From Patescibacteria group bacterium (lineage in GTDB: Bacteria; Patescibacteriota; Patescibacteriia; Patescibacteriales; UBA12465), in the NCBI GenBank assembly GCA_041650715.1, contig JBAZKQ010000002.1:9568-73567 (forward strand): 64,000 bases of DNA. Direction: 5' to 3'. The translations under genes were made by a program, and so were the position numbers. The notes beneath the pieces were generated by a model. That model made no database searches. It had not been told where the DNA came from and worked only from the letters and a program-made list of their open reading frames with translations. Of this stretch, positions 1,668-62,640 are shown in pieces. The first letter of the stretch is position 1. Each line of letters starts with the position of its first letter.

Positions 1668-3938
1668 ATGAATTTAATAATCGTCGAATCGCCAACCAAA
1701 GCTAAAACTATTGCCAAGTTTTTAGATAAAAATTACCAGGTCGAATCTTCATTCGGCCATATTCGCGATCTGCCGGTAAGCAAAATGGGGATTGATTTGA
1801 AAAATAATTTTACGCCTGACTACGTAATCCCTGCGAAAGCTAAAAAAACTGTATCCACTTTAAAATCGGCCGCTAAAAAATCAACCGAAGTTATTCTGGC
1901 GTCTGATGAAGACCGCGAAGGAGAAGCTATTGCCTGGCATTTAGTGGAAGCCTTGGGCCTGAATATTAAAAATACCAAACGCATTGTTTTTCATGAAATT
2001 ACTAAAACAGCAATTTTAGAAGCCCTGGAACACCCCCGCCAAATTGATCAAAATATGGTTGACGCGCAACAAGCGCGCCGTATATTGGATCGTTTAGTCG
2101 GCTATGAATTATCTCCTTTTCTCTGGAAAAAGGTAGCCAAGGGCCTTTCCGCCGGCCGTGTTCAAAGCGTAGCTACTCGCTTAATAGTGGAAAGAGAACG
2201 AGAGATTCTTGATTTTAAAACCGAGGATTATTGGACCCTGTCTGCCGATTTAAGCAAAGACGGCAAAACGCAGCCCTTCACCGCCGACTTATATAAAATC
2301 AACAATAAAACCTTTAATAAACTATCTCTTAAAAAAGATAAAGCCGAGGAACTGAAAGCCAGTCTGCGAAGCTCCGACTACCAGGTAGTTAAAATTGAGA
2401 AGAAAGAAATTAATAAGAATCCGGCGGCTCCTTTCACCACTTCAACCCTACAGCAGGCGGCCAATCGTCATCTTGGCTTTAGTGCTAAGCAAACAATGAC
2501 CATTGCGCAAAAATTATACGAACAGGGTTATATTACCTACATGCGTACGGATTCCTTAAATCTTTCTCCGAAATTTATTACGGATGCTTATGATTGGTTA
2601 TTAAAAACACAGGGCGCACAGTACGCTATCAGCGGCGGACGGGCCTATAAAGGGAAAAGCAAGAACGCACAAGAAGCTCATGAAGCCGTTCGTCCGACCG
2701 AAGCGTCACTAACCCCGGAAATTCTCGCTCCGAAACTTGATAAGAACCAAGAAAGACTCTATCGTCTTATTTGGCAACGGGCCGTTTCCAGCCAAATGAC
2801 TCCGGCCCGACTGGCCGCAACCACCATCGATACCGAAACAAGTTCTGCGCAAGAAAATTATATATTTCGCGCTACCGGACAGATGTTAATCTTCCCCGGC
2901 TACCTTAAAATTTGGCCGGAAAAAACTAAAGAGCAGGAACTGCCGCCACTTCAGGAGAAAGATGATTTGGAACTTCTTGATTTGCGGGCCGACGGCCATA
3001 CCACTAATCCGCCCGCTCGCTATTCCGACGCCGGTCTGGTTAAAGAACTGGAGAAATATGACATCGGACGGCCTTCAACTTACGCGCCGACAATCAACAC
3101 TATTATTACTCGCAATTATGTCGAGCGCGATGACAATAAAAAATTGAAACCAACCGGCATCGCCTTTGTTGTTACCGATCTACTAATTAAACACTTCCCC
3201 AAGATAGTTGATTATGCTTTTACCGCTAAAATGGAAGACGATCTTGATGCCATCGCCGAAGGTGAAAAAAAATGGCAGCCGGTTATCGGTAATTTCTATG
3301 AAGACTTTCACGCTAATTTAAAAATAAAGGAAGAGGAAATTAAAAAAAGTGATATTATGCCTGAAGAAAAATCAACTGAGATTTGTGATAAATGCGGCGC
3401 CCCGATGATTATTAAAATCGGACGCTTCGGTAAATTCTTGGCTTGCAGCGGTTATCCGGATTGCAAGAATATTAAAAAATTTACCGGCGAGGGCGGAAGC
3501 TACGAAAAAAAAGAAGTAGATCCAAAAGTTCTGGAACTGCAAAAGAAGTATGACGGCGAAGTCTGCGAAAAATGCGGCTCCGCGATGAAGGTTCGAGTCG
3601 GAAAATACGGTCCTTTCTTAGCCTGCTCCGGCTACCCAAAATGTAAAAATATTAAAAACATCGCCGAGGCAAACGCGGGCGGCGTTGAAGTCCCTTGCCC
3701 GGTTTGCGGAGAAGGAAAGATTGTTAAAAAATTTAGTAAGCGAGGAGCGTTTTGGGCCTGTAATAATTACCCAAAATGTAAAAATGCGTATTGGGGAGAG
3801 CCGACCGGAAAAGATTGTCCCGATTGTAGTGCCTTGCTCGTTCATGACACCAAATCAGGAAAAATAAAATGCAGTAATAAAGAATGCGGTTATATAGAAA
3901 AAGAGAAAAAAGCGAAAGCTAAAGAAGAATCGGTTTAA
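1668..3938 (+). CDS. topA: DNA topoisomerase I
   Basis: TOPRIM N-terminus (IVESPTKAKTI, SDEDREGE) and catalytic Tyr region (GYITYMRTDS). Several C-terminal CxxC...CxxC zinc ribbons. Confidence 0.95.
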   Translation: MNLIIVESPTKAKTIAKFLDKNYQVESSFGHIRDLPVSKMGIDLKNNFTPDYVIPAKAKKTVSTLKSAAKKSTEVILASDEDREGEAIAWHLVEALGLNIKNTKRIVFHEITKTAILEALEHPRQIDQNMVDAQQARRILDRLVGYELSPFLWKKVAKGLSAGRVQSVATRLIVEREREILDFKTEDYWTLSADLSKDGKTQPFTADLYKINNKTFNKLSLKKDKAEELKASLRSSDYQVVKIEKKEINKNPAAPFTTSTLQQAANRHLGFSAKQTMTIAQKLYEQGYITYMRTDSLNLSPKFITDAYDWLLKTQGAQYAISGGRAYKGKSKNAQEAHEAVRPTEASLTPEILAPKLDKNQERLYRLIWQRAVSSQMTPARLAATTIDTETSSAQENYIFRATGQMLIFPGYLKIWPEKTKEQELPPLQEKDDLELLDLRADGHTTNPPARYSDAGLVKELEKYDIGRPSTYAPTINTIITRNYVERDDNKKLKPTGIAFVVTDLLIKHFPKIVDYAFTAKMEDDLDAIAEGEKKWQPVIGNFYEDFHANLKIKEEEIKKSDIMPEEKSTEICDKCGAPMIIKIGRFGKFLACSGYPDCKNIKKFTGEGGSYEKKEVDPKVLELQKKYDGEVCEKCGSAMKVRVGKYGPFLACSGYPKCKNIKNIAEANAGGVEVPCPVCGEGKIVKKFSKRGAFWACNNYPKCKNAYWGEPTGKDCPDCSALLVHDTKSGKIKCSNKECGYIEKEKKAKAKEESV

Positions 3939-4355: not shown

Positions 4356-6785
4356 TTAGTCTCTAAGGCGAGCCGCAAACTTTTCACCCAAATGCTTTAC
4401 GAGATTAACGACAATATTTTCCACTTCTTCGGCCAAGAGGGTTCTCTCCGGCGATTGGAATCTTAAGTGATAGGCCAAACTTTTTTCCTCGGCCGCTAAC
4501 TTATTCCCGACATAAACATCAAACAACTCGACTTCTCTGATTAGAGGATTGAATTTTTTTATTTCCTTGGTAAATTCATTATACAATATTTTTTCATTTA
4601 TGACAAAGGCTAAATCCCGAGTTGTCTCCGGATATTTGGCCAGTTCTTTAAAGTGAAGCGCCGATAAGCTGAGCACCATGTCGGCCAGGAGAGAAAAATT
4701 TAATTCAGCGACGGCACTTTGCTTTTTCAGATTGATATTAGCGCCTACCTCTTTACTTATTAAAGACACAATTCCGATTTCTTTCCCGAATACTCTAATT
4801 TTAGCCGTTACCTTTTTATCCGCCCAACCCGGTTTTTCTTCAATCGGTAAAAATTCGCTTACCCCCTCATCATTAAATAAATTATCCAATAAACCACCAA
4901 CGACTCCCTTTAAGCGCTTGAATAAATCTTCTTTATCATCGGCGATAATGATTCCTAATCTTTTTTCTTGATAGGGGAGGGTGCTGTCTCCCGAGGCTTC
5001 TTTTTTAATGCGTCCAGGAGCATCAAAAAATACGCTGCCGAACTCAAAGAACCCCAAAGATTCTGCTTTTGATTGATTAGCTTTGATATTACCGATTAAG
5101 CCGGGGACAAGCGACTGGCGCAACATCGTCTGAATATCGGACAGCGGGTTAGCTAATTTAAGATGCTTAAAGAAATCAATATTTAATTTTTTCAGTTGAT
5201 CGTCGCCGACAAAAGAATAATTATAAACCTCACTTAGAGCGAATTTTAGAACTAAAAAGTCCTTTATACTTCTTTCCAAAAGTCTTTCCCGGTTAATTTC
5301 CGGCAAGCGCAAGGTTTCCAGCGGTAATTGGGACTTAATTTTATCATAACCGTAAATACGCAGCACTTCCTCGGCTAAATCTTCTTTGGCCGCGACATCT
5401 TTTGTGGCGCGCCAAGAGGGAACAGTAACTTTGAGCACCGGCTCTTTAGGATCAGCCACGATGAAACCAAGATTTTCCAAAGTTTTAACTGTAGTCTCGA
5501 CCGGAATTTCCTCGCCAATCTTTTTAGTCAGCCAAGCTAAATCAAGGTCAATCAGCATCGGTTGGTTTTTAGCGTGCTGGATATCAATAAGGGCACTCTC
5601 AATTTTTAATTTAGGGAATAATTCGTGCAAGAGGCTCAGAAATTTAGTTAAGGCTTCCGCGCAGAGATTAGGATCTAAGGCTTTTTCAAAACGCGTTGAG
5701 GCTTCAGTGCGCAGGCCCAAGCGCTGCGAGGTTTTCCTAATCATAACCGCGTTAAAATTGGCCGCTTCCAAAATAATACTTTTTGTACTTGCGCTAATTC
5801 CGCTCGCTTTACCGCCCATTACACCGGCGAGAGCGATCGTTTCTTTCCCGTCGCTAATTACCAAGTCATCTTCATGTAAATTTCTTTCTTTTTCATCAAG
5901 CGTTTCCAGAAATTCGTCTCGGTGCGCCTTGCGCACGACAATTTTTTCAATTTTATCCGCGTCAAAAGCATGTAGGGGCTGGCCGCAATCAAGCATAATA
6001 TAATTAGTCAAATCGACAATATTATTAATCGGTTTTTGATTAACGGCAATTAATCTTTCTTTCAGCCAGGCCGGCGACTCTTTAATCTCCACGCCGCTTA
6101 CCTTAACCGCCATATAGCGCGGGCAGGCGTCCTTATCTTCTACTTTAACTTCTAACTTATTTTCTTTAGCGCTTAAAAATTTTATTTTTTTGTCTAACGG
6201 CTTGCCGTAGGGTTTAAGCATGGTCTGAAAAATAACGCTCATTTCTCGAGCGATGCCATAATGACTAAGCAAATCGGGACGATTAGACATTGATTTATTA
6301 TCTATCTCCAAAACGATATCGTCCGCCTTTAAATATTTAGATAGTGGTTCGCCAATTTTAGCCTTCTCGCTTAAAACCATAATGCCTTCATGATTTTTTC
6401 CGAGACCGAGCTCATCCTCGGCGCAAATCATGCCGCTTGATTTTTCTCCCCTGATTTCCGATTCTTTAATTTCTAAACCATTCGGTAAATTAGCACCGAC
6501 CAAGGCGACCGGGACAAGCTGTCCCACGGCTAAATTAGGCGCACCGCAAACTATGTTTAATTTTTTTGTTTTAATATCAACGACGGCCAGGCGCAAGCGG
6601 TCGGCATTAGGATGTTTTTCAACCGACAAAACGGAACCGACGACGACTTGTGAAAATTGTTGCGCTTGCCCGCTAAACCCCTCGACTTCTACCGTATGGT
6701 TAGTAAGTTCACGGGCAATATCGGCCGCTTTTATTTTCGCGGATAATTTAAGATAGTCGTTTAACCAATTAAGAGATATATACAT
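4356..6785 (-). CDS. pheT: Phenylalanine--tRNA ligase beta subunit
   Basis: 809 aa with an N-terminal OB tRNA-binding domain (VEKHPNADRLRL), B3/4 and B5 regions and a C-terminal FDX-ACB-like end. Lies immediately downstream of pheS. Confidence 0.9.
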   Translation of the reverse strand: MYISLNWLNDYLKLSAKIKAADIARELTNHTVEVEGFSGQAQQFSQVVVGSVLSVEKHPNADRLRLAVVDIKTKKLNIVCGAPNLAVGQLVPVALVGANLPNGLEIKESEIRGEKSSGMICAEDELGLGKNHEGIMVLSEKAKIGEPLSKYLKADDIVLEIDNKSMSNRPDLLSHYGIAREMSVIFQTMLKPYGKPLDKKIKFLSAKENKLEVKVEDKDACPRYMAVKVSGVEIKESPAWLKERLIAVNQKPINNIVDLTNYIMLDCGQPLHAFDADKIEKIVVRKAHRDEFLETLDEKERNLHEDDLVISDGKETIALAGVMGGKASGISASTKSIILEAANFNAVMIRKTSQRLGLRTEASTRFEKALDPNLCAEALTKFLSLLHELFPKLKIESALIDIQHAKNQPMLIDLDLAWLTKKIGEEIPVETTVKTLENLGFIVADPKEPVLKVTVPSWRATKDVAAKEDLAEEVLRIYGYDKIKSQLPLETLRLPEINRERLLERSIKDFLVLKFALSEVYNYSFVGDDQLKKLNIDFFKHLKLANPLSDIQTMLRQSLVPGLIGNIKANQSKAESLGFFEFGSVFFDAPGRIKKEASGDSTLPYQEKRLGIIIADDKEDLFKRLKGVVGGLLDNLFNDEGVSEFLPIEEKPGWADKKVTAKIRVFGKEIGIVSLISKEVGANINLKKQSAVAELNFSLLADMVLSLSALHFKELAKYPETTRDLAFVINEKILYNEFTKEIKKFNPLIREVELFDVYVGNKLAAEEKSLAYHLRFQSPERTLLAEEVENIVVNLVKHLGEKFAARLRD

Positions 6786-6789
6786 ATAT

Positions 6790-7845
6790 TTAAAACTGCT
6801 CTATAAATTTAAGGTCACCGCTATTAAATAAGCGCACGTCATTAATATTATATTTAAGCATCGCTAAGCGATTAAGTCCGAAGCCGAAAGCTAAACCGGA
6901 ATAGACTTCCGGGTCAATCCCGCCCGCTCGTAAAACATCGGGATGGATTAAGCCGGCGCCGACAATTTCGAGCCAGCCGGTATGCTTACAAACGCGGCAG
7001 CCTTTGCCCTCACAGAGGAAGCAGGTATACTCGCCGTTATTACCAGGCTCAACAAAAGGAAAAAATTTCGGCCGCATGCGCAGCTCGGTATTGGGACCAA
7101 ATAATTTTTTGCCGACTATTTCCAATAAGCTTTTTAAATTAGCAAAGTTTATATCCTTGCCGACCATAATACCCTCCACCTGATAAAATGTGTGTTCATG
7201 GCGCGCATCCGTCGCTTCATTACGAAAGCAGCGCCCCGGGATTATCGCCTTTAAGGGCGCGCCATATTTTTGCATTAATCTAATCTGTACGGGCGAGGTT
7301 TGGGTGCGCATTACTAAATCATATTGTCCCTCTTTATTTTTCGAATCAATATAAAAAGTGTCTTGCATGTCGCGGGCGGGATGAAAGGGGGAGACATTAA
7401 GGGCCGTAAAATTATAATAATCACTTTCCAGCTCAGGCCCGTCACCCACCATAAAACCGAGCGAAGTAAATAAATCTTCTAATTCGTTTTGGACAAGCGT
7501 AATCGGATTCAGGTGGCCAGTCGCAAATTTTTCTCCCGGGAGGGTAACATCCACAAAATCATTCTTCTTGCCATAGTTTTCAAGAGTCCGGCTCATTTCC
7601 TGAAATTTGCTTTGCATTTCGCCTTTAACCGTATTAGCCAGTTCGCCTAACTCTTTTTTCAGTTCTAAACTAAGATCCTTAAGACCGTGCATAATCTCGC
7701 TCATTTCTCCCTTACGCGAGAGATATTTTAATTCCAAATCGCGCAACTCGTCGCTATCTTTGGCTTTTTGCAGTTGCTCCAGAAACTCAGCTCGTATTTT
7801 TTCAATTTTGTTCTTCATATTATTAGTTCCGTTTTTCGGAAACAT
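6790..7845 (-). CDS. pheS: Phenylalanine--tRNA ligase alpha subunit
   Basis: Class II aaRS motifs (GRCFRNEATDARHEHTFYQVEG, GLAFGFGLNRL). The true start may be the Met 9 codons in. Confidence 0.9.
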   Translation of the reverse strand: MFPKNGTNNMKNKIEKIRAEFLEQLQKAKDSDELRDLELKYLSRKGEMSEIMHGLKDLSLELKKELGELANTVKGEMQSKFQEMSRTLENYGKKNDFVDVTLPGEKFATGHLNPITLVQNELEDLFTSLGFMVGDGPELESDYYNFTALNVSPFHPARDMQDTFYIDSKNKEGQYDLVMRTQTSPVQIRLMQKYGAPLKAIIPGRCFRNEATDARHEHTFYQVEGIMVGKDINFANLKSLLEIVGKKLFGPNTELRMRPKFFPFVEPGNNGEYTCFLCEGKGCRVCKHTGWLEIVGAGLIHPDVLRAGGIDPEVYSGLAFGFGLNRLAMLKYNINDVRLFNSGDLKFIEQF

Positions 7846-7856
7846 GATTTATATTT

Positions 7857-8237
7857 TTAGCGGCTCTTTTTAGAACTGATTAAAAATAATTCTAAGATTG
7901 CAAAAATAATAACCAGCAATAATAAATTAATCCAATTAAACAGGTGCTGTGATTTTAAAATAAGAGATAAAACAATAAAAAGGGAAAAAAGGAAAGATTG
8001 GCGGAAGGCGACCTTAACCGAATTAAAAGCCAGTTCTTTCTTGAGGGCGACAAAACGAATTATGAACCCGATTAAGGCGGCCAGACCGCTTAAGGATAAA
8101 AATAGCGCCAAATAAAAAAGGATGTAGCCCAGCCAATTAGTGGCTGTCGGGTCAATTAAGCTGGCGACAAAAATAAGAATACCCCAGCACACGGCCGTAA
8201 GAGTCGACATCACGAATAAATAATTTTTTAGGGTCAT
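7857..8237 (-). CDS. Hypothetical multi-pass membrane protein
   Basis: About four hydrophobic segments. Overlaps the valS stop by 4 nt, which suggests an operon. Confidence 0.4.
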   Translation of the reverse strand: MTLKNYLFVMSTLTAVCWGILIFVASLIDPTATNWLGYILFYLALFLSLSGLAALIGFIIRFVALKKELAFNSVKVAFRQSFLFSLFIVLSLILKSQHLFNWINLLLLVIIFAILELFLISSKKSR

Positions 8238-54339: not shown

Positions 54340-55650
54340 ATGCAAATCACCAAAAAAGATTTAGAAAAATCACAAATTGAATTAACCGTGGAATTAAGCA
54401 CGGAAGAGTTTGCGCCTTATATTGAAAAAGGTGCGCTTAAGGTTGCCGAAGAAGTAAAAATCGAGGGTTTCCGTAAAGGTAAAGTTCCTCTGGAGATTTT
54501 AAAGCAAAAAATTGGCGAAATGACGATTTTGGAGGAAGCCGCTAATATTGCAATCCGAAAAACAATCGACGAAGCGGTCGAAAAAAATACGATGGAGCGC
54601 CAGGCAATCGGCCAACCCCAAGTTAATATTACTAAGTTGGCGCCGAATAATCCTTTAGAATATAAAGTTATTGTTTCACTTTTACCGACGATAGCTTTAG
54701 GAAAATATAAGGGCTTAAACTTAAAAGCGGAAGAAGCAAAAATTGATGATAAGGAATTAGAAAAAGCGTTAAATGATTTACGCGAAATGCGCGCTCAGGA
54801 AGTTCTGGTTGAACGCGGTGCCGGGGCGGGAGATAAAATAACGATTGACGTCAGAATGTCTTTGGACAAAGTTCCGCTTGAAGATGGCGATCATAAAGAA
54901 TTGGCGATAATTTTGGGTAAGGATTATTTTGTGCCCGGCTTTGATGATAAAATGATGGGTATAAAACAGGACGAAGAGAGAAATTTTGAATTGCTTTATC
55001 CGGAAGATCATCATCAAAAAAATATTGCCGGCAAGATGGTTGAATTTAATGTTAAAGTCAAAGGTGTCTACGAAAGAAAGCTCTCGGAATTTAATGATGA
55101 GTTTGCCGGTTTCTTCCGTTTGAAAAATATGGAAGAACTAAAAACTAATTTAAAGGAAAGTTTACTCCAGGAGAAAAAACACAATGTCGACATGCGCAAT
55201 GAGTCCGAGTTGATCGGTAAAATTGTGGATGACACTAAATTCGGCGATTTACCGGACACGATTATTGAAAGCGAAAGCCGCAACATGATGATGGAGCTCG
55301 AACAGAGCGTTGTGCGCCAAGGCGGAAAATTTGAAGATTATTTGGGCCACCTTAAAAAAACTAAGGAGCAATTAATCTTGGAAATGATGCCGAACGCCGT
55401 GAAGCGCGTCAAGTCGGCGCTTGTCATTCGTGAGCTCGCGATAGTTGAAAAAATTGCCCCGGCCCATGAAGATATCCATAAAAAAATTGATGAGCTTGAA
55501 GCCCAGTATAAAGATAACGCGGATATCATCAAAATGATTCACGAACCTGATTATCATAATTCTTTAAATAACATTTTAACTAACGAGAAAGTAATCGCGA
55601 AATTAAAGGAATGGAATTATGCCCCAACTGGCGATAAACAAAAAAGCTAA
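54340..55650 (+). CDS. tig: Trigger factor
   Basis: N-terminal ribosome-binding motif (GFRKGKVP), a central FKBP-like region and a C-terminal arm domain. Confidence 0.9.
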   Translation: MQITKKDLEKSQIELTVELSTEEFAPYIEKGALKVAEEVKIEGFRKGKVPLEILKQKIGEMTILEEAANIAIRKTIDEAVEKNTMERQAIGQPQVNITKLAPNNPLEYKVIVSLLPTIALGKYKGLNLKAEEAKIDDKELEKALNDLREMRAQEVLVERGAGAGDKITIDVRMSLDKVPLEDGDHKELAIILGKDYFVPGFDDKMMGIKQDEERNFELLYPEDHHQKNIAGKMVEFNVKVKGVYERKLSEFNDEFAGFFRLKNMEELKTNLKESLLQEKKHNVDMRNESELIGKIVDDTKFGDLPDTIIESESRNMMMELEQSVVRQGGKFEDYLGHLKKTKEQLILEMMPNAVKRVKSALVIRELAIVEKIAPAHEDIHKKIDELEAQYKDNADIIKMIHEPDYHNSLNNILTNEKVIAKLKEWNYAPTGDKQKS

Positions 55651-56077
55651 CTTTGACTACCAGATTCAAGATAAATATGAAGCGGGCTTGGTTTTATTTG
55701 GCCATGAAGTTAAGGCGGTACGCGCCGGGCAGGTAAGTCTTAAAGGAAGTTTCATTAGTATTCGTACGAAAAACGGCCATACGGAATTATACTTAGTTAA
55801 TTGTCAGATATCTCCCTATAAAAGCGCCGGTCCGATGCCCGACTATAATCAAATGCGGGAGCGTAAATTGCTTTTAAAGCGTCAGGAAATTGACCATTTA
55901 TTAGGCAAGAAACAGACCGAGGGCTTGACACTAATCCCCCTAAAAATATATACTAATCATAGTTTTTTGAAGTTGGAATTTGCTATCGCGAAAGGTAAGA
56001 AAAAGTATGACAAACGAGAAACTATCAAAAAAAGAGATATCGACCGCCGCTTAAGATCGTTAACAAAGAGAAGTTAA
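55619..56077 (+). CDS. smpB: SsrA-binding protein SmpB
   Basis: Conserved N-terminus (NKKANFDYQIQDKYEAGLVLFGHEVKAVR) and a basic C-terminal tail. tmRNA follows 20 nt downstream. Confidence 0.9.
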   Translation: MPQLAINKKANFDYQIQDKYEAGLVLFGHEVKAVRAGQVSLKGSFISIRTKNGHTELYLVNCQISPYKSAGPMPDYNQMRERKLLLKRQEIDHLLGKKQTEGLTLIPLKIYTNHSFLKLEFAIAKGKKKYDKRETIKKRDIDRRLRSLTKRS

Positions 56078-56097
56078 GCAAAGAAAAAGGCTGATTA

Positions 56098-56483
56098 GGG
56101 GATGCCAGGCATCGACAGTCGGAGCTTTTTCTAAATATTCAAAACGCGCCTAGCTAATCGCGTTAAACTGGCTAAAAAAATACAAATGCCAAAACGGCAA
56201 GAGCATTCACTTGGTTAACTCCGAGCTATGCTCCAGTTATGGCCTAATTAATAAGGCTATAACCATCGGCGGATCGTGAGTCTTCATAACGGTCAACCGG
56301 TGTCATTCAATTGAAGATAGATATTATTTGCGCCTGACGAGTAATATCGAATCAAAATCGGGATCGCTTCAATCGCTTTTGTGTGGTTTTTGATGATTGA
56401 AGTTAAAAAAACGAAATCACTCTATTTTTGTAAATGTATTTAGGAAAACCGATTGGACATGGGTTCAAATCCCATCATCTCCA
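56098..56483 (+). ncRNA. ssrA: tmRNA (SsrA)
   Basis: - The 5' ggggatg pairs with the 3' catctcc, including the G3-U wobble (Ala identity).
- T-arm atggg-ttcaaat-cccat.
- Candidate tag reading frame GCC at 56188 to TAA at 56245-56247, encoding AKTARAFTWLTPSYAPVMA.
- Lies directly after smpB. Confidence 0.85.
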
Positions 56484-56487
56484 CATT

Positions 56488-56571
56488 GCCGCGGTGGCGG
56501 AACTGGTAGACGCGCTGGACTTAAAATCCAGTTGTAGCGATACAGTGCGGGTTCGATTCCCGCCCGCGGCA
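56488..56571 (+). tRNA. tRNA-Leu with anticodon UAA (class II, long variable arm)
   Basis: Acceptor gccgcgg/ccgcggc, anticodon stem ctgga/tccag, loop cttaaaa, variable arm tgta-gcga-taca, T-arm gcggg-ttcgatt-cccgc. Begins 4 nt after the tmRNA. Confidence 0.9.
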
Positions 56572-56594
56572 CTAGTAAGCAAGTTAAACGATAC

Positions 56595-56666
56595 GCGGGT
56601 ATCGTATAGTGGTTATTATGCGACCTTGCCAAGGTCGAGAGACGGGTTCGATTCCCGTTACCCGCT
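56595..56666 (+). tRNA. tRNA-Gly with anticodon GCC
   Basis: Acceptor gcgggta/tacccgc, anticodon stem cgacc/ggtcg, loop ttgccaa, T-arm acggg-ttcgatt-cccgt. Confidence 0.85.
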
Positions 56667-56673
56667 CAATAAC

Positions 56674-56702
56674 AAAAAAGACTCCTCTTGGAGTCTTTTT
56701 TG
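56674..56702 (+). terminator. Intrinsic terminator after the tmRNA/tRNA-Leu/tRNA-Gly cluster
   Basis: agactcc (56679-56685) pairs with ggagtct (56690-56696), followed by a T-run. Confidence 0.8.
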
Positions 56703-56711
56703 TTATTGATA

Positions 56712-56888
56712 GGAAGAAGAACGGGAATCGAACAGGTTGGAAGCGAGATATGAGCCGAGACGGAAGGCGAGGCGAGTAATCGAGCGTCGGACGAATATCT
56801 GGGGGATATTCGGATGCCAACCCTGGACAAGTGAGCGAGGCGCAATTCTGGCGCCGAGTGAGCGCGAGGATGGGGATTAGTAAGCCAG
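56712..56888. other. G+C-rich structured non-coding element B, tRNA-adjacent
   Basis: Visibly G+C-rich in an A+T-rich context.
- 56720-56733 (aacgggaatcgaac) is the exact reverse complement of the tRNA-Gly T-arm at 56646-56659.
- Hairpins: cgaatatc-tgggg-gatattcg (about 56801-56821), ggcgc-aattctg-gcgcc (about 56839-56855), and caggttgg..ccaaccctg.
- Shares AGTGAGCGC and AGCGAGG with element A. Confidence 0.5.
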
Positions 56889-57097
56889 ATAAATAGAGCT
56901 TGAAAGTACTTTTTATTATTTAAAGCGTGAATTACAGTAGCAAAGCCGGCTTGATTCATACGTTTTATATTTACCTAAATTTGTATAATTACGTTTCATA
57001 AATCATGCTTGGCATTGCATTAAGATTGAATTTAATTTTGTAAAATATTATATAGTTATTGTCAAGATTTATTTAAAGGAAGCTCTGGTGTAAACTT

Positions 57098-57712
57098 ATG
57101 ATAATAATTAAAATACTAAATATGCCGCCCGAAAATTTCTGTAATTTTTTAAATATTCCTTTTTATTTGAAATATGAATTTTGGTTGACCATCGCTAGTA
57201 TTGCATTTGCTGGATTTGCGTTATTCGAAACAATGAAATTAAGAAAGGAATCGCAAAGGCAAAATATACTCGCCAAACAGCCATATCTATCCCTTAAACT
57301 AAAAAAAGATGAAGAAAATAAAAGCTCTAAGCAGATACTTGTAAATAATTCTCTGAACCCTGCCTTTAATATATTTGTTCTTTTTGGAAGTGCTGATAAA
57401 TATTTAATCACAAAAGAAGGTGGCGTTATTAGCTCGCTGGGCCCAAACGAAAGAAGGCAGATTAATGATGATGAGTTAACCACGATAAATAGATCTGCTA
57501 TTTTGGAAAGAATTAAATTTTTGAATAAACTTATAAATAAGTTTGAAACTAAAAGCACAAGTTTTCACGCTATTTTCTATGAAGATATATTCGGAAATAA
57601 AATGTATTCAGTTGGCTTGCCTTCATTGATCATGGAAAATGGGTATAATGGTTTTTTTAATGTAGGGTATGTTGAGGGTGCGAGGACAAAAAATAGAACT
57701 GTTATCATATAA
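57098..57712 (+). CDS. Hypothetical membrane-anchored protein
   Basis: One TM helix (WLTIASIAFAGFALF) followed by a roughly 150-aa soluble domain of unknown family. Very A+T-rich. The start is uncertain; the Met at 57122 is possible. Confidence 0.4.
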   Translation: MIIIKILNMPPENFCNFLNIPFYLKYEFWLTIASIAFAGFALFETMKLRKESQRQNILAKQPYLSLKLKKDEENKSSKQILVNNSLNPAFNIFVLFGSADKYLITKEGGVISSLGPNERRQINDDELTTINRSAILERIKFLNKLINKFETKSTSFHAIFYEDIFGNKMYSVGLPSLIMENGYNGFFNVGYVEGARTKNRTVII

Positions 57713-57725
57713 GTATGCTAAATAA

Positions 57726-58403
57726 ATGAGTGTTGCACTAAAGTTTAAAGAATTTCAAAAAGAATCAAAAAGGGCCCAATATGGGATAGGCCATGAGTTT
57801 GGTCTGATTTTATCATTAATTGATTTTGGGAATGTTGATTATTGGTATGAATTTGATAATTTTAATCGAGATGGAAAAGCCTTAAAGGATAACGAAAAGT
57901 TAAATGTTGACCTAGAATATTTAAAACAATTCTGTGATTTATTTTCTTATAATTCAAAATTTTATTTTGGTTTGGATTCTAAGAAAAAAGAATCAATACA
58001 TTTAATAGCTTCAGCTAGAAATTTTTTTGGTAAAACGAATGTTGTAACAAAAGAAATACAATATATACAACATTATTTAAATGATTTAGAAAAAAAGGAG
58101 AATACTCGCTCGGTAACTTACGATATTCATGGACAATATATAAAAATACCAAAGTGCAATTTTGATGTAGAAATCTGCATTGATGCCATTAGATTGGCTG
58201 ATAAATATGACACCCTATGTTTATTTTCCGGAGACGCTGACTTTACGGCGTTGTTAAGATTTTTAAAATATCAAAAGAAGAAAATAATTTTGATTAAAGG
58301 CGGGCGCGTGCTTCATAGTTTAGTAAAAGCCTCCGATTTAGTCATTAATGCTCAGGAAATAAAAAATGAATTAGTCTTTATAAAGCAAAAATCCCGCCGA
58401 TAG
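57726..58403 (+). CDS. NYN/LabA-like (PIN-related) ribonuclease-domain protein
   Basis: NYN motif order: LIDFGNVDYW, then KCNFDVEICIDAIRLA, then LFSGDADFTALLRFLKYQKKKIILI. Confidence 0.6.
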   Translation: MSVALKFKEFQKESKRAQYGIGHEFGLILSLIDFGNVDYWYEFDNFNRDGKALKDNEKLNVDLEYLKQFCDLFSYNSKFYFGLDSKKKESIHLIASARNFFGKTNVVTKEIQYIQHYLNDLEKKENTRSVTYDIHGQYIKIPKCNFDVEICIDAIRLADKYDTLCLFSGDADFTALLRFLKYQKKKIILIKGGRVLHSLVKASDLVINAQEIKNELVFIKQKSRR

Positions 58404-58568
58404 GCGAGATTTGCGGATCTCGGACCCGAATCCACGGGCAGGGCAATAAAAATTTATTGCAATTAAAATATACAATAATAAATTTGTATTGTCAAGGAAA
58501 TCATAATTTTTTTATCCGCTCAAGATATTGCCGCTTTTAGAATAACAGTCCAAAATTCTATCGGGTAA

Positions 58569-59573
58569 CTACTTATTAGTTTTAATTAACCTTTCAGTAT
58601 TTAGTTTTTTTATATAGGCATCATAGCGTCTGTATGATTTTTCTTTTGCAATTAGGCTCCTTTTTTCTTTTACATTTGTATTACTATCTTTTAATTTTTC
58701 TTTTACAAAACTTCTTTTTCTAAGCGTATTTGCGCCAGCAATGACTTTATTCCTACAAAGCTTTAGGCCTAAATGTTCTACATTTCCTGTCGTATATGAT
58801 GAAATATTTTTTTTGTCGTTTAATAAAAGCGAATGGTTTGTGTCGTAGTTTTTTAAAATACTCTCAATTTTATCATAAACCTCATTCATTAAATCCTCAC
58901 TAACGTTATATGCGCTAATTCCGATGTCATCAACATATATGGTTAATCTTGGGTTATGGCCCTTAAGCATTTTTTTAACAGCCCAGCTAACTCTTAAAAA
59001 TAAATCTAAATTACACAATGTTGCAAGCCTGGTTGATGTGGCAAACCCCCGAGCAATGGTTTTTCTTTTTGAATTACTATTTTTTTGTCCGACTGACACG
59101 CAACACAAATTAGCTATTAATTTAGAAGCTTTTTTGCTACACCCACATTTATTATTTAGAAGGATTTCAATACGTTTGCTGTCATTTTGTTCAAAAAAAC
59201 GTCTAATGTCTGCCCCAAGCTTAATTCTTTTTCGATGGCCACCAAGCAAACTAAGACTTGCCTGTATGTGATTTTTTTTCGAGACTCCGCCAAAAATAAA
59301 ATCGGGTAATATTTTATCAGTGGGGGCTAAAACTTTTTTATTAATTAAATTTAATAATTTACCGAGAGGGTTGCCATATGAGGTTCTAACGTATTTTTCA
59401 TTTTTAAAATCAGATGCTTTTATGTTGTCTCTCCAATATTTGTCATAATTAGCCAAAACGTCATTAATTAAAATTAGCGCCTCACCATGGGTAAAATTAC
59501 TTCCTGATATTCTTTTTGCTAATTCATTCTTGCTTCTGATATTTATATTGGGATAACGATTATTTTCTGGCAT
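58569..59573 (-). CDS. Stand-alone reverse transcriptase (compact, unclassified)
   Basis: - RT motif 1: LGKLLNLINKKVLAP.
- Motif 2: FGGVSKKNHIQAS...LGADIRRFFEQN.
- Motifs 3/4: ARGFATSTRLATLCNLDL.
- Motif 5: YVDD, encoded at 58926-58937 (checked by hand).
- Motifs 6/7: LLLNDKKN...VEHLGLKL.
- Lys-rich helical tail. No fused effector, maturase or endonuclease domain. Confidence 0.8.
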   Translation of the reverse strand: MPENNRYPNINIRSKNELAKRISGSNFTHGEALILINDVLANYDKYWRDNIKASDFKNEKYVRTSYGNPLGKLLNLINKKVLAPTDKILPDFIFGGVSKKNHIQASLSLLGGHRKRIKLGADIRRFFEQNDSKRIEILLNNKCGCSKKASKLIANLCCVSVGQKNSNSKRKTIARGFATSTRLATLCNLDLFLRVSWAVKKMLKGHNPRLTIYVDDIGISAYNVSEDLMNEVYDKIESILKNYDTNHSLLLNDKKNISSYTTGNVEHLGLKLCRNKVIAGANTLRKRSFVKEKLKDSNTNVKEKRSLIAKEKSYRRYDAYIKKLNTERLIKTNK

Positions 59574-59889
59574 ATTTTTTTAAATTTTTCGCTTTTTTGC
59601 TTATTAGTGATATTTGCAATTTTTCACCTAATTTTATCATTTCTTCTTCTATTTTAGTTAAGCTGATTTTACTAATATCAATATTTCCATATAAAAAAGG
59701 GGTGATCGAATTAGGATGCACCTCAAGTTTGTCAGCTAAATTCAATATAAATTTTTTAGATATTTCTTTTTGTCCAGATTCTATCATCGAAACCAATACC
59801 GTAGAAACAGAAAGAGCGTTCGCAAGCTCCTCTTGAGTCAATCCACTATTTTTTCTAATTTCTTTTAATAATTCAGGGAATGATACCAT
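59560..59889 (-). CDS. XRE-family helix-turn-helix protein
   Basis: HTH_3 pattern LKEIRKNSGLTQEELANALSVSTVLVSMIESGQKEIS. Its 3' end overlaps the RT start codon by 14 nt. Confidence 0.8.
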   Translation of the reverse strand: MVSFPELLKEIRKNSGLTQEELANALSVSTVLVSMIESGQKEISKKFILNLADKLEVHPNSITPFLYGNIDISKISLTKIEEEMIKLGEKLQISLISKKAKNLKKYARK

Positions 59890-59896
59890 AAAGAGA

Positions 59897-60052
59897 TTAC
59901 AGGGCGACTATTTTATGAGGTCTACGATGATATGGGCAATCTGCAAAAGTATTTGCATTATTACACATAATCTTCGCGTGTTTTTCATAAATAGCCGCCC
60001 CTAAAATTGAAGGGCACAAATTAAAACTTTTAACTTTGGCTTTCATAATCAT
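59897..60052 (-). CDS. Possible 51-aa Cys/His-containing small ORF, first gene of the RT operon (not in the ORF track)
   Basis: Hand translation gives MIMKAKVKSFNLCPSILGAAIYEKHAKIMCNNANTFADCPYHRRPHKIVAL. The stop lies 7 nt upstream of the HTH ATG. No convincing Shine-Dalgarno sequence. Confidence 0.3.
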   Translation of the reverse strand: MIMKAKVKSFNLCPSILGAAIYEKHAKIMCNNANTFADCPYHRRPHKIVAL

Positions 60053-60454
60053 ATGGGTTTAGTTATTATTTGAATAATAAGGGACCTTTATAAAAATGAT
60101 TACCTAATTTTCTTGTGACCATCATCACCGTGGTACCCTCCAACAATAAACTTTGATGATCAAAAGATTATCAAGCAATCACTGTCAGAACATGAATGTT
60201 AGCTGTATATTATTTATAAATAATTAATATATGCGCTAAAAGTTCTGCGCTAGAGCAAATGTAGCATTAGTCTTATTAGCGCAAAGCATTGAGCATGGCG
60301 TTATAATAAGATGACACATTAATTTACTCTCCCGGAAAAAATCTTTCCTTTTAAGATAGCAAAGAGAAAGAGACAGATATCAAGATGGATATCTAAAATA
60401 ACGGTTAAGCGTAGTCACAAAATTTTAATTTGTTAATATACTATCCTAGTTAAT

Positions 60455-60483
60455 ATATTATACTTTTTGTATAAGTATGTCAA
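60455..60483 (-). promoter_or_regulatory. Near-consensus promoter reading toward the RT operon
   Basis: On the minus strand, TTGACA (60483-60478) is followed either by a 17-nt spacer and TAATAT (60460-60455), or by a 15-nt spacer and TATAAT (60462-60457). Confidence 0.5.
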
Positions 60484-60637
60484 GGGTGTCCATGGGGTGT
60501 GCTCCTGGCAAGCACACCAAACTCCCCAATATTAAAGATTGAGTTAAATTACCCCCTTCCTATATTGCCTCCCCACAAAAAATTGCGCCGCCATTGTGAT
60601 CGAAAAGTGATAAATTTCTTTTTTTGTGATAATAGTC

Positions 60638-60667
60638 AAAAACTACCCTAACCATAAGGTAGTTTTT
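60638..60667. terminator. Symmetric hairpin with flanking A-run and T-run (bidirectional terminator-like)
   Basis: aaaaactacc (60638-60647) pairs with ggtagttttt (60658-60667). The loop is ctaaccataa. Confidence 0.55.
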
Positions 60668-60780
60668 TGTACCCCCAAAACCCTATTTCCTTGAATCTTA
60701 TTAATAGTTGACTAAAATAGAGCTATTATGATATATTTTTTTGTCATACAAATAATGTCGAACCTTTAAAATTTATAGCC

Positions 60781-61194
60781 ATGAAAAGCAAAACTGTATT
60801 ACTAATTGAACCCAATCGGAGTATTCGGGAAAACCTGAAAAACTCCTTGGAGGCCATCGGCGATAAAGTGTTTATTGCCAAGGACGAAGATGAAGCATTG
60901 GGTGTTTTAAAAGGGAATGAAATAGATGTAATTATAATTGAGCCTCTTTTAAATACTGATTTTTTGAGTAATAAAAAAGAGTTCATAAGAAATGTTTTGT
61001 CTGGTGGCACTGGTGCCGTATTAATAAGCAACATCAGGACAGCTTATAGGAAAAAGTTTGATACAATATTCTACACGGTAGTTTCCGCAAGCAAACTTTT
61101 CGCTATTAGCCCCGAATTAGAAGATGTTATTTACATTCGCAAGCCGCAGTCCACTGAATTCATAATTCTGGTAGTCCATAGTGAGGGAGGGTAG
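60781..61194 (+). CDS. Stand-alone receiver-like (pseudo-REC) domain protein
   Basis: CheY-like layout: VLLIEPN replaces the acidic DD pocket. DVIIIEPLL puts Glu where the phospho-acceptor Asp normally sits. The conserved Lys-Pro is present (IRKP). Upstream promoter TTGACT-N18-TATATT with an extended TG. Confidence 0.5.
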   Translation: MKSKTVLLIEPNRSIRENLKNSLEAIGDKVFIAKDEDEALGVLKGNEIDVIIIEPLLNTDFLSNKKEFIRNVLSGGTGAVLISNIRTAYRKKFDTIFYTVVSASKLFAISPELEDVIYIRKPQSTEFIILVVHSEGG

Positions 61195-61903: not shown

Positions 61904-62191
61904 TTAGGTTTCTAAATAATCAGCCAGAGCGTCTTTTGAGATTTTGCTTAAGCAAAGTCCAACTGTCTGGCCCTTGGTGGCGGAGTTGACCTCATCATGA
62001 AAGAACTCAATTCTTTTAATGTGTTCTTTGATTGGTGTTTTATAACCGTTTTCGATTTTGACGTCATCTCCTTTAGAGATGGTGCCATTAGTGACTTCAC
62101 CTACGGCCATAAGTCCGCAGGTCTCTTGCTGTACTTGGTACACGGTAACCAGAGAGCCGTCTGTAGTGACCATAATAAATTTGAGATTCAT
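61904..62191 (-). CDS. Stand-alone EF-Tu domain-II-like beta-barrel protein, paralog 1
   Basis: 95 aa. CGLMAVGEVTNGTISKGDDVKI...IKRIEFFHDEVNSATKGQTVGLCL follows the EF-Tu/IF2/SelB domain II pattern (G.v..G.v..G.i..Gd.v.i ... i.sie.....v..A..G..vgl.l). Confidence 0.55.
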   Translation of the reverse strand: MNLKFIMVTTDGSLVTVYQVQQETCGLMAVGEVTNGTISKGDDVKIENGYKTPIKEHIKRIEFFHDEVNSATKGQTVGLCLSKISKDALADYLET

Positions 62192-62343: not shown

Positions 62344-62640
62344 CTACTGACTTTTATTAATTAAATAATCAATCAGAGCACTTTTAGAAGTTTGGCCTAA
62401 ACAGACTCCGACAAGTTCTCCTTGGATAGCGCCTCGGACTTCCTCGTGGTTTTTTTCAATTCTTTTTAGCCCATCGTAGATTGGCATCTTGTCGGCATTC
62501 TGGATACTGATCATTTCTCCCTTACTGAGACCTCCGCTTGTGATTTTGCCCACAGCTACAAGACCGCATGGTTTTTGCATTATTTGGTCAACATCCATGA
62601 CTCCTCCGCTTCCGGAAATTAGCTTAAATTTTAGCTTCAT
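62344..62640 (-). CDS. Stand-alone EF-Tu domain-II-like beta-barrel protein, paralog 2
   Basis: 98 aa and alignable end to end with 61904-62191. Compare MKLKF/MNLKF, CGLVAVGKITSGGLSKGEMISI, RIEKNHEEVRGAIQGELVGVCL and ALIDYL/ALADYL. Confidence 0.55.
   Translation of the reverse strand: MKLKFKLISGSGGVMDVDQIMQKPCGLVAVGKITSGGLSKGEMISIQNADKMPIYDGLKRIEKNHEEVRGAIQGELVGVCLGQTSKSALIDYLINKSQ

Follow-up and report, generated by a model that had tools for sequence, protein, structure and literature searches.

A LabA-like NYN gene beside a Type VI retron in Patescibacteria and a predicted antisense RNA converging on its 3′ end

Introduction

The question raised by this locus is whether a putative nuclease gene that lies close to a reverse transcriptase (RT) operon works together with that operon, works with the membrane protein gene that precedes it, or belongs to neither. 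The window, i.e., the whole 64,000-nucleotide (nt) stretch of Patescibacteria DNA that was analysed, contains two adjacent open reading frames (ORFs) on the forward strand, one encoding 204 amino acids (aa) at 57098–57712 and one encoding 225 aa at 57726–58403. The gap between them is 13 nt, and the second ORF stops 165 nt from the stop codon of the RT gene, which is located at 58569–59573 on the reverse strand and is convergent with it. A previous reading of this DNA from its letters alone (the sequence-only reading) had described both ORFs and their spacing in this way, which was confirmed here. It had further suggested that the two proteins, a NYN nuclease and a membrane-anchored partner, form either the effector arm of the RT system or an independent two-gene module. 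Neither suggestion held up in the comparisons below, and the sequence-only reading had overlooked a conserved RNA gene in the 165-nt spacer.

The interpretation that we prefer, and to which we assign a probability of roughly 0.55, is that the 225-aa ORF encodes a NYN ribonuclease (RNase) which stands outside the retron, is not paired with the 204-aa protein and would be controlled by a convergent antisense RNA encoded in this spacer.

Results and Discussion

The 225-aa ORF encodes a LabA-like NYN protein

Both ORFs are regarded as genes and not as chance ORFs because homologues exist for each of them: 16 remote relatives for the 204-aa protein and, for the 225-aa protein, 429 clusters in the protein search, nearly all from Patescibacteria and with 40–71% identity. 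In the 225-aa protein (57726–58403, forward strand, stop codon TAG at 58401–58403), the motifs LIDFGNVDYW, NFDVEICIDAIRLA and LFSGDADFTALL begin at residues 31, 145 and 166, respectively. From this motif series, the sequence-only reading had assigned the protein to the NYN family, and profile searches bear out the assignment. Residues 109–206 match the Pfam NYN model PF01936 (E = 8.9e-13; bit score 49.4, cut-off 24.2), and a profile of 27 homologues matches the structure 2QIP at E = 7.8e-6. Residues D33, N36, D147, E149, D153, S168, D170 and D172 are invariant in 27 aligned homologues. The AlphaFold2 model has a pLDDT of 93.3, and Foldseek again returned the LabA-like 2QIP as the best match (E = 4.8e-8, TM-score of 0.71 on the target), together with the NYN domain of MARF1 at E ~4e-6. 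The highest Kyte-Doolittle 19-residue mean in the protein is 0.92. Combined, these results identify it as a LabA-like NYN protein whose acidic residues are intact, and, judging from its sequence and model, the gene is predicted to encode a PIN-fold, metal-dependent RNase.

In comparison with known LabA-like NYN proteins (PF01936, COG1432; 2QIP, i.e., VPA0982; MARF1), the protein scores above the gathering cut-off, keeps the acidic residues and matches the fold of 2QIP and MARF1. It differs in its length of ~225 aa with an N-terminal helix and β-hairpin insertions, whereas the crystallised domains comprise 150–165 aa, and in a conserved basic tail (I-K-Q-K) which distinguishes it from other LabA-like NYN proteins. 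A further difference is the antisense RNA partner proposed here, which is not reported for LabA-like NYN proteins in the literature searched. In the 2017 classification of PIN-like domains, the function of the LabA-like NYN group is listed as unknown and functional studies as lacking (PMC5499597).

A genome scan confirmed relatives of this NYN protein in 380 species-level genomes. For 73 loci among L003–L089, the NYN gene was compared with its flanking DNA, and in 72 of them the gene has the higher A+T content, by a mean of 7 percentage points; no conserved synteny was found. The low G+C content and the absent synteny would suit an accessory or selfish module. Elsewhere, the genes neighbour those for FtsA/FtsZ, a SpoU methylase, a ribonucleotide reductase, ProRS/ClpB or an ABC-F ATPase. 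The last of these adjoins the NYN gene and its RNA in the closest relative for which the context is available (71% identity).

A conserved RNA element lies opposite the NYN 3′ end

When the NYN genes were aligned by their 3′ ends, nucleotide conservation was seen at the stop codon and immediately beyond it, although the proteins themselves are only 40–65% identical. The 165-nt "spacer" after the NYN gene harbours a gene (58382–58460, reverse strand) for a small RNA that is predicted to be structured, ~79 nt long and complementary to the NYN 3′ end; its ends are deduced from a promoter and a U-tract. Across the family, the predicted length is ~65–85 nt. Iterated nhmmer searches detected the element in 80 of 89 sources (81 of 90 with the window included). 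A covariance model, R1, then recovered it in 97 of 100 sources, always opposite the NYN gene, and additionally in L159. In the window itself, R1 gave a single strong match at 58378–58474 on the reverse strand (86 bits, E = 3e-19).

Every NYN locus with an intact 3′ end carries the element, in one copy per locus except in L039, a locus labelled Xanthobacteraceae and disrupted by an insertion sequence. An unbiased scan of metagenome contigs for the core pattern returned 63 loci, of which 50 are no more than 80 nt away from a NYN 3′ end, 3 are situated at the end of a contig, and about 10 adjoin truncated NYN remnants or no NYN gene. The orphan RNA genes (L090, L099, L102, L122 (same sequence), L107, L110, L092 and L108) keep an intact RNA next to a NYN remnant consisting of the last 20–60 codons, or next to none, and the RNA occurs without any recognised remnant in two loci only. 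By these searches, the predicted RNA strictly accompanies NYN 3′ ends, across some 150 Patescibacteria loci and in a few contigs labelled Proteobacteria.

A phage origin of the RNA was rejected, as its core pattern has no match among the IMG/VR viral contigs. In Rfam 15, no family reached the gathering score for the whole window, the element in the window or two divergent representatives of it. For the window element, the scan extended to E values of up to 10, and for the two representatives to E values of up to 1, with the gathering threshold applied to the whole window; the sub-threshold matches to the element were driven by its terminator only. No known RNA family was found in these scans, and a full-text search of the literature did not find a NYN-associated RNA described. 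On this comparison, the element is a candidate new RNA family.

In L039 (2500–9500), which lies on a high-G+C contig, a DDE transposase gene (6623–7777) interrupts the NYN gene, and the RNA element is present twice (3655–3753 and 8104–8202), inside 300-nt direct repeats. Genes nearby encode a serine recombinase and ThiF/DUF6791/DUF6527 proteins. This context looks like a mobile element or a defence island outside Patescibacteria and would likewise fit an accessory or selfish module.

Structure, strand and promoter of the predicted RNA

From its 5′ end, the RNA would consist of a hairpin (P3), the sequence CCUG, a second hairpin (P2), the linker UnnACGAUCC, the terminator hairpin P1 and the U-tract. 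In the alignment A3, 89% of the cells are paired, compared with 31–46% in controls with slid partners. Changes on both sides were counted in 432 cells, compared with 33–77 in the slid controls, and 22 of the 27 pairs show such double-sided changes. Three predicted helices covary strongly by this measure.

P1 (58385–58414, reverse strand) is a long hairpin with a stem of 12–14 base pairs across the family; its helices 5–7 are 70–95% paired, and nine of its pairs are changed on both sides. The U-tract following P1 at 58380–58391 reads UUUUUGCUUUAU on the RNA and has the family form UUUUUGCUUU. A terminator scan placed a site with 10 pairs at 58412–58389 on the minus strand, followed by TTGCTTTATA. 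P1 is probably the intrinsic terminator of the small RNA, predicted to be bidirectional and shared with the NYN gene. The loop of P1 contains the NYN stop codon, and the U-tract is complementary to the codons for the conserved C-terminal K-Q-K. In ~18% of the NYN homologues, the protein carries a C-terminal extension, GLADRNPESTGRT, which is the translated complement of the RNA gene. Stop-codon readthrough or recoding as the cause of the conservation past the stop is ruled out by a 1-nt frame shift in L004, by varying stop positions and by covariation at the level of nucleotides and structure.

The P2 hairpin, CCCGN-GGAU-N′CGGG (58425–58438, reverse strand), is 97% paired with double-sided changes at all five pairs, and is preceded on the RNA by the near-invariant CCUG (58439–58442). 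Its GGAU loop (58430–58433) could form a pseudoknot with AUCC of the linker (58415–58418). The pairs of this candidate are 87–95% pairable and mostly invariant, with 30 G·U changes and 1–2 compensatory changes, which is suggestive only. The alternative helix GNGGAU:AUCCGC, which may compete with P2, is the minimum-free-energy fold of the window RNA and is unsupported at its one covarying position. P3, the 5′ hairpin GCAAUAAA-UU-UUUAUUGC (58443–58460, reverse strand), is variable in sequence and missing in some lineages; its helix 1 is 81% paired, and six of six pairs are changed on both sides.

A sigma-70-type promoter for the small RNA is predicted at 58467–58495 on the reverse strand, with the −35 box TTGACA (58495–58490), a 17-nt spacer and the −10 box TATATT (58472–58467). 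It matches the consensus at 11 of 12 positions, is the best promoter-like site in 56600–60900, and its −10 box aligns in columns 2–8 of A3. Matches of at least 10 of 12 were found in 46 of 90 loci, compared with 3–4 of 90 in the controls, and lie at a fixed distance to the RNA core. Between the end of the −10 box and CCUG, there are typically 22 nt in RNAs with P3 and 7–10 nt in those without it.

The RNA is placed on the antisense strand because of the G·U asymmetry and the fold stability, the side of the U-tract, the direction of the promoter and the minus-strand terminator. G·U pairs number 222 in the antisense orientation and 141 in the sense orientation, and for 78 of 96 sequences folding gave the more stable structure on the antisense strand (p = 3e-11). 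A long U-tract follows P1 on the antisense strand only.

Of 96 unique loci, 37 have an exact DnaA box, TGTGGATAA or TTATCCACA, in the 110 nt that precede the RNA core (~0.008 expected per stretch searched). In 31 of these 37 loci, it is oriented as TGTGGATAA on the RNA strand; the box is situated within the promoter spacer or adjoins the −35 box. At the locus studied here, a degenerate DnaA-box-like sequence, AGCGGATAA, is located at 58512–58520 on the reverse strand, 17 nt upstream of the −35 box. From their placement, DnaA boxes may couple the synthesis of the RNA to the status of DnaA in many lineages. The sign of any such regulation is ambiguous, since the position of the box varies.

The NYN gene stands apart from the retron and from the 204-aa gene

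The RT gene is part of a Type VI retron operon at 58569–60483 on the reverse strand, which PADLOC models recognise as RT_VI (6.5e-19) and HTH_VI (2.6e-12). The RT gene itself (58569–59573) carries the RT_VI match and is overlapped by 14 nt by the HTH gene (59560–59889). These are accompanied by a small ORF of 49–51 aa (59897–60046/60052), 45–55% identical in four relatives, and by an upstream non-coding RNA (ncRNA) region of ~400 nt, likewise conserved in four relatives (~60060–60450). A promoter, TTGACA-17-TATAAT (60483–60455), lies ahead of the ncRNA region. In the published type VI architecture, the RT is accompanied by a structured RNA, a small protein as the toxin and an HTH protein as the antitoxin (bioRxiv 10.1101/2025.10.22.683967; 10.64898/2026.04.27.721009). 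With RT_VI, HTH_VI, the small ORF and the upstream ncRNA region, the operon resembles the Type VI retrons Retron-Vpa2 and Retron-Sen3, and on its gene content it is a complete, self-contained Type VI retron. In contrast, the NYN and the 204-aa protein are not components of the published architecture or of the closest relatives. No terminator-like site was seen between the RT stop codon and the small-RNA terminator P1, and therefore retron transcripts may run through the small-RNA gene.

The 204-aa protein (57098–57712, forward strand) is shortened to 196 aa by gene callers, which place its start at Met9. It contains one hydrophobic segment, at residues 28–46, with a borderline Kyte-Doolittle 19-residue mean of 1.57; the segment falls inside a predicted helix (22–59) and is found at the same position in 16 of 16 distant relatives. 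The single transmembrane helix named in the sequence-only reading was thereby recovered, and the protein is probably anchored by it. An indexed search with this protein found only itself, whereas an exhaustive HMMER search of 1.8 billion representatives found the 16 remote relatives, i.e., 17 members in total. P62, N91, Y161 and D163 are invariant across this family. No Pfam or PHROG family was assigned to the protein. In its model (pLDDT 84), a long helix leads into a generic C-terminal β-sandwich, for which the PDB contains no fold match at E < 0.01. It is best described as a probable single-pass membrane protein.

How these neighbours relate to the NYN gene was assessed by co-occurrence, a test that the sequence-only reading itself had proposed, and the outcome speaks against both earlier suggestions. 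For an effector arm of the RT system, one may cite the 165-nt proximity, the convergent orientation and the common low G+C content, as well as the role of NYN/PIN RNases as effectors in some defence systems and weak PADLOC matches (E ~1e-4) to NYN and HEC-09 models. However, the retron already has the full Type VI set including a small-protein toxin (bioRxiv 10.1101/2025.10.22.683967), and the association fails in both directions. The four closest RT relatives (58–72% identity) keep the small protein (SP), HTH, RT and ncRNA beside differing downstream neighbours, and none has this NYN family or its RNA. Conversely, tblastn of up to 6 kb on each side found an RT or SP homologue in none of the 87 other NYN loci, and the sole HTH match is weak (33% identity, in L039, more than 5 kb from the NYN gene). 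The A+T-rich island noted in the sequence-only reading is real, with a G+C content of 0.27–0.33 across 57000–61000 compared with ~0.41 elsewhere in the window; it does not link the NYN gene to the retron, because low G+C content is a trait of this NYN family in nearly all its loci, as described above. We therefore consider an effector arm highly improbable, and on these comparisons the NYN gene is not a component of the adjacent retron. An independent toxin or defence module made of the 204-aa protein and the NYN protein is scarcely more credible. While the 13-nt gap and the common strand suggest co-transcription here, the small 204-aa family has no homologue within 6 kb of the NYN gene in any of the 87 other loci (tblastn). 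In its two nearest relatives, the next gene encodes a receiver-domain protein or an unrelated ORF and not NYN, and NYN homologues in four other loci have upstream intergenic regions of their own (108–267 nt). Likewise, none of the 63 loci found by the RNA pattern contains an RT, SP or 204-aa homologue, and the pair proposed in the sequence-only reading does not travel with this RT family. The 204-aa gene is thus a lineage-specific neighbour which adjoins the NYN gene only in this genome, possibly co-transcribed with it here, and it lies outside the conserved module.

Proposed control of the NYN protein by the antisense RNA

In the interpretation that we prefer, the RNA would start at its own promoter (58495–58467), run toward the NYN gene and end at the hairpin and U-tract straddling the NYN stop codon, so that the terminator would be common to both genes. 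We infer that the RNA is expressed and that it serves as a negative regulator or an antitoxin of NYN. It could pair with the NYN mRNA, to whose 3′ end it is fully complementary, i.e., exert convergent antisense control. In addition, or instead, it could bind the NYN protein through the near-invariant unpaired segments CCUG, GGAU and ACGAUCC. An antitoxin-like role fits the distribution, as every intact NYN gene has the RNA while some RNAs outlive the NYN gene. Since ~30 unpaired nucleotides are near-invariant, a sequence-specific partner is argued for as well, and the NYN protein would most likely be that partner.

Convergent transcription with 3′ overlap is the geometry of the type I toxin-antitoxin loci par (fst/RNA II) of E. 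faecalis pAD1 and txpA/RatA and bsrG/SR4 of B. subtilis, and par has a shared bidirectional intrinsic terminator. The module described here resembles these cis-antisense loci: a coding gene and an RNA of ~65–80 nt converge with overlapping 3′ ends, orphan RNAs outlive the protein gene, and a convergent cis-antisense RNA with its own promoter and a shared terminator is predicted here from the sequence. However, it would not be a member of the 3′-overlapping type I family because NYN is not a small hydrophobic peptide: the protein is a soluble 225-aa enzyme here and a hydrophobic peptide of less than 60 aa there. The RNA also differs in its strongly conserved primary sequence and covarying helices across the phylum, and no complementarity of the 5′ direct-repeat kind known from par was found here. 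With the type III systems (ToxIN, CptIN and TenpIN), the module shares an endoribonuclease gene linked to a dedicated structured ncRNA which could bind and inhibit its product. In contrast, type III antitoxins are tandem repeats encoded ahead of the toxin gene, in the same orientation, and the toxin processes them, while the RNA here is a single unit, convergent and overlapping, and the type III nuclease fold is unrelated to the NYN fold.

Several observations weigh against this interpretation. Pure antisense control would not need 30 near-invariant nucleotides throughout a phylum, so that base-pairing alone is probably insufficient. Known type I toxins are small hydrophobic peptides and not 225-aa enzymes. 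A comparison of the RNA with NYN 5′ regions gave no complementarity signal, with duplex energies equal for matched and mismatched locus pairs (p = 0.83), and the NYN 5′ untranslated region (UTR) or start region was rejected as its target. Most of the hairpins would also form on the sense strand, and a role in the 3′ UTR of the NYN mRNA is conceivable. The NYN neighbours are mostly housekeeping genes, which would fit a housekeeping role of NYN as well. Finally, the DnaA box in the window matches TGTGGATAA at only 7 of 9 positions, and its position varies between the promoter spacer and the region upstream of the −35 box.

Three other explanations were considered. The one that comes closest, which we regard as rather unlikely but still credible, is that the main action of the RNA is to bind the NYN protein, whether as a type III-like antitoxin, as a cofactor or as a substrate, and that the overlap reflects tight packing around a shared terminator. 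This would account for CCUG, GGAU and ACGAUCC being near-invariant where the proteins are 40–65% identical, which suggests a sequence-specific partner, and for the strict association with NYN; yet the tandem repeats and the upstream same-strand layout typical of ToxIN-type systems are missing, and orphan RNAs could equally mean a function independent of NYN. It is less probable that the element functions in the sense orientation and provides the NYN mRNA with a structured 3′ UTR and terminator, perhaps an autoregulatory site bound or cleaved by NYN, without a separate functional RNA. Either strand could fold into P1–P3, P1 lies between an A-run and a T-run like a bidirectional terminator, and the element is surely part of the mRNA in the ~18% of homologues in which it is translated as GLADRNPESTGRT. 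Against this stand the G·U excess and the steadier fold of the antisense strand, the long U-tract on that strand only, and the conserved promoter pointing in from the far side at fixed spacing. Moreover, the reading frame in which the element follows NYN varies, with a shift of 1 nt in L004, and intact elements persist where the NYN gene has been deleted. More doubtful still is a housekeeping, trans-acting Patescibacteria RNA under DnaA control, with NYN as its processing enzyme or as a mere neighbour sharing the terminator. The DnaA boxes, the housekeeping gene neighbourhoods and the survival of RNA genes after NYN loss are consistent with it, but the RNA was never found away from a NYN 3′ end or remnant except in the two loci mentioned, the family of ~380 species-level genomes does not look universal, and the NYN genes have an atypically low G+C content. 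Both sense-strand and trans-acting housekeeping roles are possible and less well supported than antisense control. As for trans-acting targets within the window, the unpaired segments of the RNA showed only chance-level 7–8-mers of complementarity to other RNAs such as tmRNA, and such targets were rejected.

A more far-reaching version of convergent antisense control can be put forward only tentatively, in which NYN and the RNA would make up a toxin-antitoxin or regulatory module of a kind not recognised before: an enzyme-sized RNase would be restrained by a phylum-conserved antisense RNA sharing its terminator, and DnaA would read the RNA promoter, so that the status of the replication initiator would release or curb RNase activity. 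The DnaA boxes in the promoter would suggest a link between replication status and RNA turnover. If such a DnaA-linked NYN-RNA module exists, it would provide the first functional handle on LabA-like NYN proteins, together with a new and widespread RNA family in Patescibacteria. LabA-like NYN proteins comprise thousands of sequences, and a covarying partner RNA would make them testable as a two-component system in terms of control, inhibition or guiding. A conserved small RNA would also be added to a phylum with tiny genomes. For annotation, the spacer after these NYN genes should not be treated as empty, some C-terminal extensions are translations of the RNA gene, and proximity to a retron does not mean membership in it.

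Genomic setting of the locus

The genes for smpB, tmRNA, tRNA-Leu(UAA) and tRNA-Gly(GCC) are located at 55619–56667, directly upstream of the A+T-rich stretch. Sites of this tRNA/tmRNA type are classic integration hotspots. However, neither an integrase nor a flanking direct repeat of a tRNA 3′ end was found here. The conserved element as a tRNA-like remnant of an integration site was likewise rejected, as it shows no similarity by eye to the 3′ end of the adjacent tRNA-Gly and no direct repeat flanks the island. Between the tRNA-Gly terminator and the island, ~200 nt at 56700–56900 (forward strand) are non-coding and rich in G+C and purines (G+C ~0.46–0.5). An ORF with homologues is absent from this segment, and at E ≤ 1 Rfam yielded only spurious microRNA matches over the terminator.

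Beyond the retron, at 60781–61194 on the forward strand, lies a gene for a shortened receiver-domain-like protein of 137 aa (Response_reg, E = 1.7e-5, below the cut-off). A receiver-domain protein (L158, 858–1229) also comes after one of the two nearest relatives of the 204-aa protein, which may be a coincidence. Further along, two small paralogous ORFs of 95 and 98 aa are found on the reverse strand at 61904–62191 and 62344–62640, respectively. In the precomputed annotation of the same contig, the 61904–62191 ORF matches PF03144, the model of EF-Tu domain 2; standalone proteins resembling this domain are unusual.

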